Source: Candidatus Kaiserbacteria bacterium (GTDB lineage: Bacteria > Patescibacteriota > Minisyncoccia > Phycocordibacterales > UBA2100). Taken from it: a DNA stretch of 50,122 nucleotides. Every line of letters starts with the position of its first letter. Position 1 is the first letter of the stretch. The position numbers and the translations under genes were made by a program. The stretch is from assembly GCA_003164215.1 (NCBI GenBank), contig PLSR01000019.1, positions 1-50,122 of the forward strand, given 5' to 3'. Under the pieces are notes generated by a model. That model was given only the letters and a program-made list of their open reading frames with translations. It was not told the DNA's origin and searched no databases. Below are positions 15,620 to 44,325 of this stretch, piece by piece.

Positions 15620-16312
15620 ATGGAAATAAAAAACAAGATCGCGATCGTGACGGGCGCATCCTCCGGCATCGGTCGTGCGCTCTCACATGAGCTTACCAAG
15701 CGCGGCGCGACCGTCGTACTTGCGGCGCGCTCCAGCGATACACTTTCCGCGCTCTCGGCGGAACTGCCGGGATCATTTGCGGTACCGACCGATATGACGA
15801 AGCTTGCCGATATACAGAATCTCATCGCACAAACGCAAAAGAAATTCGGACGCGTCGATCTTCTCGTCAATAACGCAGGGCAAGGCATGCGATCGGCCGT
15901 CGAGGACATCAAGATGGACGATTATCGGGCGATCATGGAGCTCAATGTCTTTGGCATCGTCGAGGCGATGCAGGCTGTCATACCGACGATGCGCGCACAA
16001 GGCAGCGGCATGATATTGAACATCAGCTCAATGGTATCGAAGAATTACTATCCCCTGCTTGCCGCGTATTCATCCACCAAATTCGCCCTGAATTCCATTT
16101 CGCTCACCGCGCGCCAGGAGCTCGCCGACGACAAAATAATCGTGAGCGTCTTCCATCCCAAAATGACCGCGACCGATTTCGGCAAGAACTCGCGCGGAGA
16201 AAAATACTCATCGTCGGCCGGTCGCCCCGGCATGACGGTTGATACTCCTGAAGAAGTCGCGCTACATATCGCGGATCAAATCGAGTCCGAAGACGCGGAG
16301 GCGAATATGTAA
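15620..16312 (+). CDS. SDR-family oxidoreductase
   Basis: TGASSGIG, NNAG, YSSTK. Confidence 0.95.
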   Translation: MEIKNKIAIVTGASSGIGRALSHELTKRGATVVLAARSSDTLSALSAELPGSFAVPTDMTKLADIQNLIAQTQKKFGRVDLLVNNAGQGMRSAVEDIKMDDYRAIMELNVFGIVEAMQAVIPTMRAQGSGMILNISSMVSKNYYPLLAAYSSTKFALNSISLTARQELADDKIIVSVFHPKMTATDFGKNSRGEKYSSSAGRPGMTVDTPEEVALHIADQIESEDAEANM

Positions 16313-16330: not shown

Positions 16331-16447
16331 GGCGTATCCCATAGGTATGTGTTCGACGGGGTCTTTGCAGCGCGACTGGCGCGAAACAGAGGGATTTTCC
16401 AGTAGGAAAATCCCGACCCCGACGAATACATACCTATGGGATACGCC
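16331..16447 (+). repeat. Long inverted-repeat element enclosing the conserved GWC-loop and CAGYAG-loop hairpins
   Basis: About 33-bp arms GGCGTATCCCATAGGTATG.. / ..CATACCTATGGGATACGCC; internal GGGATTTTCCAGTAGGAAAATCCC. Confidence 0.85.
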
Positions 16448-27816: not shown

Positions 27817-28107
27817 TTAGAAGACAATCTCGAACGAGTCAAACGTTTTTTGTGTCATATCCGAAGGCGGAGCGACATTCCACTGCGCATCAACACGTTC
27901 AACATGTGCAAGCAACGGTCCGCGATGCACATATGCGAGCCAGCGTTCGAGATCTTCCTTCGTCCCTTCGCCGTATGCCTCGACGGAATCATCGGCGAGA
28001 TTGCGCACGTAGCCGACGATACGGCATCGGCGCGCCTTGCGCGTTGTGAAATCACGGAACATCACCATTTGAACGCGACCATAGATGCGGCAGTACAGAT
28101 GTTCCAT
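27817..28107 (-). CDS. acyP: Acylphosphatase
   Basis: GRVQMVMFR, GYVRNLADDSVE. Confidence 0.85.
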   Translation of the reverse strand: MEHLYCRIYGRVQMVMFRDFTTRKARRCRIVGYVRNLADDSVEAYGEGTKEDLERWLAYVHRGPLLAHVERVDAQWNVAPPSDMTQKTFDSFEIVF

Positions 28108-28130
28108 ATCTATGATTTGTATCATAAACA

Positions 28131-28254
28131 ACACATTTTGGTCAGGCGTATTTTTCTGCTGAAAAATCGCCGCGAAGTCTCCCGGCACGAATCTCTATTT
28201 GCCGGCTCGCCTCGTCAGGCTCCGGCTCACAAAATGTGCCCCGCACATTTTGTG
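28131..28254 (-). repeat. Structured tRNA 3' trailer element (Val copy)
   Basis: Aligns with 28338-28475 and 44164-44258. Confidence 0.85.
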
Positions 28255-28325
28255 CATCCTGTAGGACTCGAACCTACGACCTTCCCCGTGTAAAGGGGTT
28301 GCTCTACCAACTGAGCTAAGGATGC
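28253..28325 (-). tRNA. tRNA-Val(TAC)
   Basis: Cloverleaf; loop TTTACAC. Confidence 0.95.
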
Positions 28326-28337
28326 ATTTATTCAACT

Positions 28338-28475
28338 CACAAATCGTGCCTCGCACATTTGGTCACGGATATTTTCCTGCTGGAAAATTCCGCGAAGTCT
28401 CCCGACATGAATTTCTATTCACCTGGCTCGGCCCGTCGGCCTGCGCCCCACAAATCGTGCCCCGCACGATTTGTG
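28338..28475 (-). repeat. Structured tRNA 3' trailer element (Arg-TCT copy)
   Basis: Aligns with the Val trailer. Confidence 0.85.
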
Positions 28476-28545
28476 CCTTCGGTAGGAATCGAACCTACAT
28501 TAAGGCCTTAGAAGAGCCCTGTTCTATCCATTGAACTACGAAGGC
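28474..28545 (-). tRNA. tRNA-Arg(TCT)
   Basis: Cloverleaf; loop CTTCTAA. Confidence 0.93.
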
Positions 28546-28618
28546 GTTCAGTCTCCCTCACCTCTTTCACAAAACACTTCACCAGAGTAGCCGTGCGCGG
28601 CGATGTGGTCAATCGATC

Positions 28619-31592: not shown

Positions 31593-31982
31593 CTACGCGC
31601 TTTTGCGCATATCCAAAAATCGCTGGAGGATGAAGGCGGCGGCGGCGGCATCGTCGTGTTCGCGGCCTTTAGGCGCGAGTTTGCTAACCTCTATTGAGCT
31701 CCATGCTTCCCAACTGCGTTCAACGGCCAATCCGGTCTGTTTTTTGAGGTTTTCTGCGAACGCATCGGCTTGTACGCTCACGGGGTTGGGCGCACCGCCA
31801 TGGGATTTCGTATCCCCGATGACGATAGCCTCAATTTTCTCGTCTCGAACTATCTCCTCGATCTTCCCTATCAACTGATCACCGTTATTGAGCGTCGTGC
31901 GGGGAAAGGCGATGGTGCCGTCAGTATCAGAAACTGCGTAACCGACACGTTTTGAGCCATAATCTATGCAAAGATACTTCAT
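31593..31982 (-). CDS. ruvX: YqgF/RuvX family nuclease
   Basis: IDYGSKRVGYAVSD, DAAAAAFILQRFLD. Confidence 0.9.
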   Translation of the reverse strand: MKYLCIDYGSKRVGYAVSDTDGTIAFPRTTLNNGDQLIGKIEEIVRDEKIEAIVIGDTKSHGGAPNPVSVQADAFAENLKKQTGLAVERSWEAWSSIEVSKLAPKGREHDDAAAAAFILQRFLDMRKSA

Positions 31983-32009: not shown

Positions 32010-32122
32010 ACATATCCCCGCAGGCTATAATTTGGGGTATTTCGAGTGCGTCGGCACGAGAACGAAGGGAGTTTTCTAGCAAGAAAACGACCGACCCAAA
32101 ATTATAGCCTGCGGGGATATGT
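32010..32122 (+). repeat. Long inverted-repeat element enclosing the same two conserved hairpins
   Basis: 24-bp perfect arms ACATATCCCCGCAGGCTATAATTT; internal GTGC-GTCG-GCAC and GTTTTCTAGCAAGAAAAC. Confidence 0.85.
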
Positions 32123-32200: not shown

Positions 32201-32932
32201 TCATTCGTCGGATTCACGCACACCGAACGCCTGTACGGTGCTACTGCCTACACGGTCACCCACGACCACGACATTGGTTCCGACGGAGAAATCGACGCCA
32301 TCTGGAAGCCTCGTTCGGTCGTTGATACGGACGGTCGTCGTACCGGCCCCATTTTGATCAACGATGATGAAGCCGCCGGTCGTCGTCGCCAGTATGATGC
32401 CGTGATACACGTCGGGCGGTGGCGGAGCACGAAATGACGCACCGTAGACGAATGCTAAGGGCGGCGGAAGTTCGTTATGATCCGCGTAAAATGCCATCTG
32501 GCGATGGAACGGTGTTGCGGCGATCAAGAATCCGCCGAGGAAAATGATAACGACGATGATCGCGGCCGAGAGCAACAGCGACTTGCGGTAGACGAATGCA
32601 TACCGGCGCACCAATACCTCAAGCAGCACGGCGAATACGACTATTAAAAATACTAAGAGCCACGGTATCGAGCGCAGGAACGAGAACCATCCTCGGCCGC
32701 CGAAGCTCGGGATGAGCCATGCACCGCTGTCATGCAAGAAAAAGACCGACAAGCTGACCATGTAAAAGAGCGACAGGAGCACGAAGAGCGCTCCGACCGC
32801 CACCAGTGCAGAGATCAGTATGAAATGCCAGCGCGGGCGCATCGTGACCCTCCCCTTCACGATCGCATCCATGACGCTCCGCCGGATCGCCGGTGTTTTT
32901 TCTGTATTCTGCTGTCGGGTGTCGTCATTCAT
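32201..32932 (-). CDS. Membrane protein coupled to the ECF sigma factor (possible anti-sigma)
   Basis: Overlaps the sigma stop; three TM segments plus a C-terminal OB-like domain. Confidence 0.65.
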   Translation of the reverse strand: MNDDTRQQNTEKTPAIRRSVMDAIVKGRVTMRPRWHFILISALVAVGALFVLLSLFYMVSLSVFFLHDSGAWLIPSFGGRGWFSFLRSIPWLLVFLIVVFAVLLEVLVRRYAFVYRKSLLLSAAIIVVIIFLGGFLIAATPFHRQMAFYADHNELPPPLAFVYGASFRAPPPPDVYHGIILATTTGGFIIVDQNGAGTTTVRINDRTRLPDGVDFSVGTNVVVVGDRVGSSTVQAFGVRESDE

Positions 32933-33488
32933 AGAGTGGCTGTGGTCCGGCGATCTTAAAGAGCGCGGCTCGGCCGCGCGCGAGCCGCACACCGACCGTT
33001 GAGACCGGGATCTGGAGGATCTCCGAGATCTCTTTATAATCCATTTCCTCTAGGTAATACAATACTAACGGCTCGCGATATTTCGGACTGACCTTGTCAA
33101 GATAGCGGTCGAGCGACGCGCGGGTATCACGCTCGATGGCCGCACTGTCGGCCGTGTCGGGTGCCGTGAGATGCGGAAAGAGCGTATCGAAGTCGATCGT
33201 GAAGACGGTGCCGCGCGATTGGCGCTTTTTCAAAGCGTTCACGAATTCATTGTGCGCAATGCGATAGATCCATGGCGAGAATCGTCGCGTCGCGTCGAAG
33301 CTTTGGATATTTTGGTATGATTTGATGAAAATATCTTGCACGATATCCGCGGCATCATCCGGATCCAAGAGGAATTTGTGCGCATAGCGCGAAAGCTTCG
33401 CTTGATAGCGCTCAATGAGCTCTCCAAAGGCTTCGCCGTCGCCCGCCTGCACGCGCAGTGCTATTGCTTCATCCGTTTCTTCGGCCAT
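32925..33488 (-). CDS. ECF RNA polymerase sigma factor
   Basis: DAADIVQDIFIK, FSPWIYRIAHN, YKEISEILQIPVSTVGVRLAR. Confidence 0.95.
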   Translation of the reverse strand: MAEETDEAIALRVQAGDGEAFGELIERYQAKLSRYAHKFLLDPDDAADIVQDIFIKSYQNIQSFDATRRFSPWIYRIAHNEFVNALKKRQSRGTVFTIDFDTLFPHLTAPDTADSAAIERDTRASLDRYLDKVSPKYREPLVLYYLEEMDYKEISEILQIPVSTVGVRLARGRAALFKIAGPQPLYE

Positions 33489-44163: not shown

Positions 44164-44258
44164 GGTCACAGATAATTTTCTACTGAAAATTTCGCCGGCC
44201 CCGGCTCGCACCGACGTGCTCCGCCGAGCACAAAACTGCGCTTACTCGTTTTGTGCTC
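44164..44258 (-). repeat. Structured tRNA 3' trailer element (Arg-GCG copy)
   Basis: GGAGCAC-GTCG-GTGCGAGCCGG..AATTTTCAGTAGAAAATT..GTGACC. Confidence 0.8.
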
Positions 44259-44325
44259 CCGGCAGGAATCGAACCTACATCACGACCTCCGCAAGGTCGC
44301 GTCCTATCCGTTGAACGACGGGAGC
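44254..44325 (-). tRNA. tRNA-Arg(GCG)
   Basis: CGACC-TTGCGGA-GGTCG anticodon arm. Confidence 0.92.

Follow-up and report, generated by a model that had tools for sequence, protein, structure and literature searches.

A family of small structured repeats behind tRNA genes of Patescibacteria, possibly inserted as folded single strands

The phage CTXphi and the gene cassettes of integrons integrate through a folded single strand whose stem is the recombination site. Here we analyze a 50,122-nucleotide stretch (the window; contig PLSR01000019.1 of assembly GCA_003164215.1, C22 in our numbering) of a Candidatus Kaiserbacteria genome that comprises 1,005,050 bases in 28 contigs with 53% G+C. It holds five copies of a small structured element, three of them directly behind tRNA genes and two on long inverted repeats. 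Compared by description only, this element would be like the attP(+) site of CTXphi, the IMEX elements, and the attC sites of integrons in that a strand-specific hairpin would offer its stem as the recombination site. As in CTXphi and attC, the stem sequence varies while the structure is kept, an unpaired or branched center lies between inverted arms, and integration leaves two arms arranged as they are in the element. In contrast to these systems, the element has neither a cargo gene nor a phage genome, its target is a tRNA gene rather than dif or attI, and it is the cap that is conserved, not the arms. Our analysis suggests that it works most like folded-strand attachment sites and the hairpin elements of the REP/IS200 type.

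A sequence-only reading of the window had described five copies with a common order of parts and a covarying first stem, and a regular-expression (regex) search recovered every one of them in place, with exactly the stems and loops listed. Given as stem/loop/stem, these are GCCT/GACG/AGGC at 28221 (minus strand, tRNA-Val trailer), GGCC/GACG/GGCC at 28442 (minus strand, tRNA-Arg-TCT trailer), GCAC/GTCG/GTGC at 44220 (minus strand, tRNA-Arg-GCG trailer), GCGC/GACTG/GCGC at 16369 (plus strand), and GTGC/GTCG/GCAC at 32045 (plus strand). In all five, a TTTTC..AGYA..GAAAA hairpin and GACC come after the first stem. While the order of parts held, the AG that had been placed before the stem did not, as it overlaps the first stem base; what is conserved is a helix P1, an internal loop GSA/GA, and a helix P2. 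The division into two kinds of context was borne out as well: the tRNA positions given by ARAGORN make three copies 3' trailers on the tRNA strand, and the two plus-strand copies stand on inverted repeats of 29-33 bp.

The core of the element measures ~70 nt, and the whole element including its arms 90-200 nt. In class 1, the tRNA-linked form, the core begins with the 3-bp helix P1, the internal loop GSA/GA, and a 4- to 5-bp P2 whose loop is GACG, GTCG, or TTGG; a GGGG linker joins this arm to a long hairpin, P3, which consists of GGTCGCGGA, a bulged A, TTTTCC AGCA GGAAAA, TA, and TCCGTGACC, and the 3' end of the core is GAC|C. Copies 1 and 2 of the window (28131-28475) are long forms, with an extra arm of 26 nt in the lower P3 stem. 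Class 2 copies have the P1/P2 arm nested between GGGGTC and upper P3, all of it resting on a stem of 24-34 bp; the arms are homologous between copies and species and show compensated differences, and the cores are nearly identical (e.g., in the six copies of genome G043). Compared with dinucleotide shuffles, the fold z-scores of the window copies are -7.1, -3.8, -15.4 (the copy at 16331), and -11.2 (the copy at 32010), with the Arg-GCG copy reaching only -1.7.

Copies were located by a whole-genome regex scan, an nhmmer profile of the copies, and a covariance model (R1) built from six short class 1 copies, which under-counts class 2 and divergent forms. In the genome of the window, nhmmer matched 13 places with E values from 6e-9 to 1.5e-16, and the R1 search likewise gave 13 matches (E up to 1); judged by the nhmmer E values, the repeat family is far beyond chance. 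Eight copies lie 3' of tRNA genes on the tRNA strand, namely, behind those for Val, Arg-TCT, Arg-GCG, Arg-TCG, Arg-CCT, Lys-CTT, Trp, and Cys (a variant), and five class 2 copies cap long inverted repeats. The copy on contig C27 comes after tRNA-end-like sequence. Among known RNA families we found no counterpart: a gathering-threshold Rfam scan of the whole window yielded tRNAs only, and E-value scans left the element unmatched both in 28050-28600 (E up to 10) and in 16 loci covering all variants (E up to 1). This agrees with the earlier view that the element belongs to no named family. Of the covariance-model check proposed at that time, the search of relatives was positive (matches in 35 of 41 genomes) and the comparison with Rfam was not. 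A literature search, conducted mostly at abstract level, likewise found no description of the element; the family is probably undescribed.

To what extent the fold is conserved was assessed in two sets, one of 112 distinct copies from this genome and 40 relatives aligned to R1 and the other of 98 copies from named Paceibacterota-type genomes. In the first set, standard pairs make up 96.5% of 2387 pair cells in the model-fitted alignment; shuffled controls reach 73.6 +/- 0.6%, and displacing the partner by 1-3 columns lowers pairing to 33-51%. Changes on both sides occur at 20 of the 22 pairs (494 cells, compared with 133 +/- 9 expected). The second set, also fitted to a model, is 96.4% paired. 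A free RNAalifold prediction on a MAFFT alignment of 55 copies recovered P3 and part of P2, with compensated changes in 16 of 18 predicted pairs. These results confirm that the module is real and strongly base paired and that its covariation is strong, in line with the claim of the sequence-only reading that the structure is under selection. Counts in the paired columns are 320 for G.T and 21 for T.G, compared with 14 for A.C and 10 for C.A (341 versus 24), and this excess means that the fold forms on the tRNA-sense strand only. One G.U pair, a G.T wobble in P3, is nearly invariant (102/108 in the first set and 96/96 in the second), and unpaired nucleotides of the core are likewise conserved. 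Moreover, orthologous copies in genomes G003 and G010 share unusual P3 sequences and yet differ by compensated changes, a pattern that, taken from the sequences, would imply selection at a fixed locus. Such selection could reflect a host function or the need of an insert to fold independently without disturbing the folding of the pre-tRNA; these two readings are not exclusive.

The element is patchily distributed. R1 matches range from 0 to 31 per genome across the related genomes, which are non-independent samples, and the element is common in the order to which the window belongs, with matches in 12 of its 17 genera; a congeneric genome that is 99% complete lacks it altogether. Outside the order, a sample of 150 genomes spread over the phylum gave 4 with a match. 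A wider search of genome contigs returned more than 120 stretches, and the public genomes with the element include Paceibacterota/Parcubacteria lineages. Along one whole chromosome (G078:C1), all nine matches at 22-339 kb are on the minus strand and all eleven at 409-907 kb on the plus strand; in two other single-contig genomes, the strand of the element is mixed along the chromosome. With origins unplaced in all three, we draw no conclusion from the split.

Several of our counts depend on ARAGORN calls and on loci only ~510 nt long. In loci of at least 2 kb, 95 of 132 copies lie within 300 nt of a tRNA. A same-strand tRNA stands upstream of 51/112 copies in the first set and 60/98 in the second, compared with 3 and 0 copies with an opposite-strand tRNA, and at least 14 tRNA species are used. 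The element thus sits preferentially just 3' of tRNA genes, in tRNA orientation. In addition, many copies are flanked by pieces of the tRNA itself. Of the copies that lie at most 110 nt downstream of a tRNA (102 in all), 45 run directly into an exact repeat of at least 10 nt of the tRNA 3' end, which is found in 0.8% of 10,028 mismatched tRNA/element pairs, and 31 are preceded by an inverted copy of at least 10 nt (1.9% in controls). Most often the direct repeat is 19 nt long with C56 of the T-loop as its first base, and this C doubles as the final base of GACC in the core. The commonest order is an intact tRNA, a hairpin, an inverted copy of T-loop and T-stem (X'), the core, an exact repeat of the tRNA 3' end (S), and native flank. 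At two loci (L029 and L059), S is followed by an older, trailer-type element, and S is therefore the original (native) tRNA end. The trailer copies of the window follow the same logic with the junction after A73 rather than T55, so that at tRNA-Val the order reads C-AAAATGTGC, GGG, GCACATTTTGTG, core, and CAAAATGTG again. A mirror form exists upstream of tRNA-Asn and tRNA-Ser: it opens with 8-11 nt from the start of the tRNA, followed by a hairpin, the core, and an inverted copy of the tRNA 5' part.

The tRNA-Cys trailer of the window's genome (G000, C9:60-345; locus L009) contains a variant of the tRNA-linked arrangement whose P2 arm is long and whose P3 differs. This variant is flanked by the reverse complement of T-loop and T-stem on one side and, on the other, by 19 nt identical to the tRNA-Cys 3' end, which tRNA-Leu(TAA) follows directly. 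Further repeated structured modules occupy other tRNA trailers of the same genome (C8:23647+, C14:137279-, C16:114008+, C4:8753+, and C13:3700+; loci L010 to L014). One combines GGGGTC, GGGGAAC..GTTCCCC, and GTGSAGGAAGG, and another is CGACCAATTTCACT..AGTGAAATG; these modules appear to be sister families with the same GGGGTC...GACC frame.

Evidence for insertion comes from orthologous sites. Counting the window's genome, 16 members of the genus have tRNA-Arg(TCT) and tRNA-Val(TAC) as a tandem orthologous pair. Visual inspection of the sequences, backed by R1 matches in several cases, shows that ten of the spacers within the pair are 2-29 nt long, four hold the element (135-207 nt), and two hold other sequence (64 and 83 nt), and that the Val trailer contains the element in 8/16 genomes and lacks it in 8/16. 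An empty site (G011) and a filled one (G010) align cleanly for more than 100 nt from the second tRNA 3'-end copy onward. Furthermore, copies are nested at GGG^TCGCG inside other copies (L087, L089, and L149), and others stand in tandem (L104, L015, and L027). The inserts are 130-200 nt of noncoding DNA, with no integrase gene inside. Hence, orthologous sites differ in whether they have the element, which is not a fixed part of tRNA genes. Given that 10/16 Arg-Val pairs, 8/16 Val trailers, and the 99%-complete congeneric genome do without it, the element is not required for tRNA 3' processing. For the class 2 copy at 16331, no empty allele was found in relatives, where the flanking genes are not syntenic.

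Empty and filled sites, nesting, target repeats, and patchy copy number lead us to read the five copies, with moderate confidence, as members of a family of small, noncoding, non-autonomous insertion elements that act as a folded single strand and target tRNA genes. The same observations fit the other proposal of the sequence-only reading, a mobile hairpin element aimed at tRNA ends. The strand-specific folding known from attP would fit the element too, as X' can pair with S across the core and the excess of G.T over A.C points to a single folding strand. We infer that the element would move as a folded single strand, in its simplest form a small circle of single-stranded DNA with the order S-hairpin-X'-core. 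X' would pair with S across the core, and the resulting stem would mimic the duplex tRNA gene target. A single strand exchange at T55|C56 (A73|C74 in the trailer copies of the window) would then let the carried S complete the tRNA while the native S ends up behind the core, which would give the observed order with the tRNA intact. The core may be the structure recognized by the mobilizing enzyme. A variant involving an HUH-type enzyme, in which X' would guide cleavage beside both copies of S, would fit equally well. The strand that folds, the tRNA-sense strand, serves as lagging-strand template wherever a gene points in the direction of replication. A plain insertion into the T-loop was dropped because the flank on the left repeats the T-loop as its reverse complement and not as a direct copy.

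It is tempting to go further and to regard these elements as the smallest site-specific integrating elements yet seen: gene-less circles of ~130-200 nt in which X' and S mimic the tRNA gene and which a host enzyme, possibly the single Xer-type recombinase, would insert at a fixed T-loop phosphodiester. A change of X'/S would then retarget the element, amounting to naturally programmable nucleic-acid-guided integration. We offer this extended version only tentatively and think it improbable as a whole, although a new mechanism of integration is a real possibility.

Several observations weigh against the insertion reading. The arms of class 2 are not target derived, and these copies have no clear target repeat. 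The pair counts of both sets come from model-fitted alignments, as noted above, and the compensated differences between G003 and G010 are more in keeping with a functional RNA than with a dead insertion. IMG/VR viral contigs, searched with two patterns, were unmatched, and no circular form was seen. Contigs from four peat metagenome DNA runs include none that skips the element; these are fragmentary and of low depth and weigh neither for nor against mobility. Above all, no mobilizing protein was found in searches for reverse transcriptase (RT), TnpB, Y1, tyrosine recombinase, and neighboring genes. The genome search returned no RT and no TnpB domain, and most genomes have a single Xer-like tyrosine recombinase (PF00589) gene whether or not they have the element, an example being the 315-aa ORF on contig C26 of the window's genome. 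When neighboring open reading frames (ORFs) of 30 and 80 loci were clustered, housekeeping genes only and no recurrent neighbor emerged.

Along with these searches, two further recombinase loci were noted. The Xer-like recombinases at G011:C2:141719-143509 and G020:C5:80184-81962 match PF00589 in two pieces within one open frame of ~740 aa, pointing to an intein or some other insertion in frame. The 2.9-kb contig C18 of the window's genome (L076) encodes a large serine recombinase (>418 aa, open-ended) and a 369-aa tyrosine integrase and probably represents part of a different mobile element.

The alternative that survives best is a functional small RNA that would be co-transcribed with tRNAs, released by RNase Z and RNase P or, from the long stems, by RNase III, and serve a host function, with copies arising through duplication together with tRNA ends. 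The strand on which the fold forms speaks for it, as do the 111 copies of the two sets with a same-strand upstream tRNA against 3 with an opposite-strand one, the conserved unpaired nucleotides and G.U pair, and the compensated change between orthologous copies. Since the Arg-Val spacers of relatives are as short as 2-29 nt, the pair is probably dicistronic, and the copy between the two tRNAs would lie within one precursor; in that case the fold must also exist as RNA, which may explain why structure is kept at individual loci. Plant tRNA-snoRNA (small nucleolar RNA) dicistrons, which are processed by RNase Z, offer a precedent for a structured small RNA encoded directly 3' of a tRNA (an entry in the reference list of PMC12045711). 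As far as the entry goes, the element is like them in placing structured sequence directly 3' of a tRNA on the same strand, and unlike them in that it has no box C/D or other known motif and is dispensable and insertion-polymorphic; the citing article concerns TIGR-Tas arrays, a different thing from the element. However, a small RNA with a host function is hard to reconcile with dispensability at orthologous sites, the copyless congeneric genome, copy numbers from 0 to 31, and copies nested in copies. The 32010 copy is antisense to both neighboring ORFs, and 11 non-tRNA copies with clear flanks show mixed gene orientation (4 same/same, 3 opposite/same, 2 opposite/opposite, and 2 same/opposite). 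No single-stranded variable segment fit for a guide was seen. Likewise, the locus appeared in no RNA run: a search of sequencing runs matched peat and soil metagenome DNA, and the only RNA-labeled runs contained 0.04 of the words. On balance, we see a small RNA as possible but doubtful.

Less probable still is a hairpin element of the REP/BIME type or derived from IS200/IS605 (PATE) that would be mobilized by the Y1 HUH (RAYT-like) proteins of the genome. The element resembles REP/BIME sequences with their RAYTs and the derivatives of IS200/IS605 in being a small, gene-less, strand-specific intergenic hairpin repeat with no linked gene, and would further share with them a target partly chosen by base pairing with a segment of the element and the use of the single-stranded lagging-strand template. 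Four Y1 genes (PF01797) are indeed present in the genome, and among the 41 related genomes 30 have both Y1 and element and 4 have neither. Yet five have the element without Y1, including G012 with 19 copies and the 99%-complete G029 with 10, and two have Y1 without the element. Moreover, three of the four Y1 loci (the fourth is at C16:4995-5228) were compared, and each is flanked by a different palindrome of its own and not by the element. Both findings also count against the insertion reading. The proposed check for co-occurring HUH/RAYT genes thus turned out positive for their presence, whereas their link to the element is weak. A long target copy together with an inverted copy is untypical of REP/IS200 elements, and, to our knowledge, a target copy of 17-21 nt accompanied by an inverted copy is not among the features of the REP/PATE family. 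We therefore judge this explanation unlikely.

The compared Y1 loci (L077, G000:C21:31922-35257; L078, C8:4496-7723; and L079, C20:7813-11088) encode Y1 proteins of 217-246 aa. The palindromes bracketing them are CAAAGCTCNGAGCTTTG, CCATGGGCACCATGG, and GATGAGGTTTAACCTCATC, and the arrangement is as in IS200-like or RAYT/REP units.

Two other explanations are very unlikely. One holds that larger integrase-driven islands or prophages formerly occupied tRNA genes and that the copies are their attachment-site ends, left behind after the rest was deleted. Integrase insertion at the tRNA T-loop classically leaves a direct repeat reaching from the T-loop to the 3' end of the tRNA, and the element shares with such integrative elements both this repeat and the restoration of the tRNA by a carried copy. 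It differs from them in that the insert is 130-200 nt long without an integrase and that many tRNAs are used within one 1-Mb genome. At least 14 tRNA species serve as targets, yet most genomes have one Xer-like recombinase; no integrase recurs beside copies, and viral contigs are unmatched. In addition, a core of ~70 nt between inverted copy and repeat is unlike a duplex core site, and nested and class 2 copies have no tRNA. The other explanation, a putative self-cleaving ribozyme or tRNA 3'-trailer processing signal cutting at its own 3' boundary, would draw on the precise and conserved GAC|C junction and on a compact conserved fold with invariant unpaired nucleotides. However, no Rfam ribozyme family was matched even at E up to 1-10, empty sites show the element to be unneeded for tRNA maturation, and here too the class 2 and nested copies lack a tRNA.

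Other candidates were rejected. Elements of the miniature inverted-repeat transposable element (MITE) and Rickettsia-type palindromic kinds are, like ours, short non-autonomous hairpin insertions of variable copy number with an unknown or trans-acting mobilizer, but MITEs have conserved terminal inverted repeats and short target duplications, whereas here the arms differ, the center is conserved, and class 2 copies show no consistent short duplication. An integron cassette does not match dispersed copies without an array, mostly one Xer-like PF00589 protein, and no recurrent neighbor gene; a hammerhead-like three-way junction fails on misfitting junction strands and the lack of an Rfam match, and a K-turn on an internal loop of 3 by 2 instead of the required bulge. 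Retron or tRNA-primed reverse transcription was set aside, with no RT and an X' that is not complementary to the tRNA 3' terminus, as was a group I or II intron, given the intact upstream tRNA and no Rfam intron match on the element.

The five copies of the window and the tRNA genes behind which three of them stand are collected in Table 1. In copy 1, the extra arm occupies the position where other copies hold nested elements, ACC after P3 pairs with GGT at 28421-28423, and the two copies of hairpin A can together close a long stem around the core in the minimum free energy (MFE) structure. The extra-arm module of copies 1 and 2 recurs in the tRNA-Phe trailer of the genome. In copy 2, the first C of the repeat CAAAATGTG is the last C of the core GACC. 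The class 2 copy at 16331, in which the P1/P2 arm is nested within GGGGTC...GACCCC, begins 19 nt past the stop of the plus-strand ORF 15620-16312, and the copy at 32010 lies between two minus-strand ORFs (31593-31982 and 32201-32992), whence its antisense position to both. Both class 2 copies have variants in metagenome contigs, one lacking T at 16377 in the P2 loop (GACTG to GACG) and one with A>G at 32065, the same as in the sister copy on C16.

Table 1. tRNA genes and parts of the five element copies in the window
Feature	Position	Strand	Basis
tRNA-Arg(TCT), CCA not encoded	28473..28545	-	ARAGORN; Rfam tRNA 69.4 bits
Copy 1, hairpin A: S = tRNA end + trailer CACAAATCGTGC, GGG loop, inverted X' GCACGATTTGTG	28449..28475	-	Sequence, fold
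Copy 1, P1/P2 arm: GGC - GCA - GGCC GACG GGCC - GA - GCC	28425..28447	-	Regex; P1/P2 covariation
Copy 1, extra arm GAATAGAAATTCATGTCGGGAGACTT, within lower stem of P3	28395..28420	-	Sequence
Copy 1, P3 hairpin: CGCGGA-A-TTTTCC AGCA GGAAAA-TA-TCCGTG	28361..28394	-	R1 match 28358-28409, fold
Copy 1, second hairpin A, after core	28338..28361	-	Sequence, MFE structure
tRNA-Val(TAC)	28252..28325	-	ARAGORN, Rfam
Copy 2, hairpin A: CACAAAATGTGC GGG GCACATTTTGTG	28228..28254	-	Sequence, fold
Copy 2, P2 arm: GCCT GACG AGGC, closed by CCGG/CCGG	28202..28225	-	Regex, fold
Copy 2, extra arm AAATAGAGATTCGTGCCGGGAGACTT, same as copy 1 arm	28175..28200	-	Sequence
Copy 2, P3 hairpin: TCGCGGCG-A-TTTTTC AGCA GAAAAA-TA-CGCCTGACC	28140..28175	-	R1 match 28137-28214
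Copy 2, 9-nt direct repeat CAAAATGTG	28132..28140	-	Repeats 28244-28252, the sequence after A73 of tRNA-Val
tRNA-Arg(GCG)	44253..44325	-	ARAGORN, Rfam
Copy 3, short form 3' of tRNA-Arg(GCG): hairpin A, P1/P2 (GCAC GTCG GTGC), P3	44164..44255	-	R1 75.1 bits
Class 2 copy, core capping a 33-bp stem with one mismatch	16331..16447	+	Regex, fold
Class 2 copy on a 29-bp stem	32010..32122	+	Regex, fold

Two inserts of another kind were encountered at tRNA-Asn genes. A long structured insert resembling a group I intron interrupts tRNA-Asn(GTT) at L197:6270-6520 (plus strand), where it follows CCTGT of the anticodon loop, and at L023 the 5' part of tRNA-Asn is followed by another inserted module.

Genomes of Patescibacteria are very small, and yet this one holds at least 13 copies of the element and a relative 31. 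If the copies do integrate as folded single strands in imitation of their target, the principle of attC and CTXphi would extend to gene-less elements aimed at tRNA genes, and the finding would point to an unrecognized activity of the host by which tRNA genes are cut in their T-loop region. If, instead, the copies are stable RNAs, they would make up a new and abundant tRNA-linked RNA class in an uncultivated lineage. Either way, the R1 covariance model could seed a family entry, and annotation of these genomes should expect duplicates of tRNA 3' ends and pseudo-fragments near tRNA genes.

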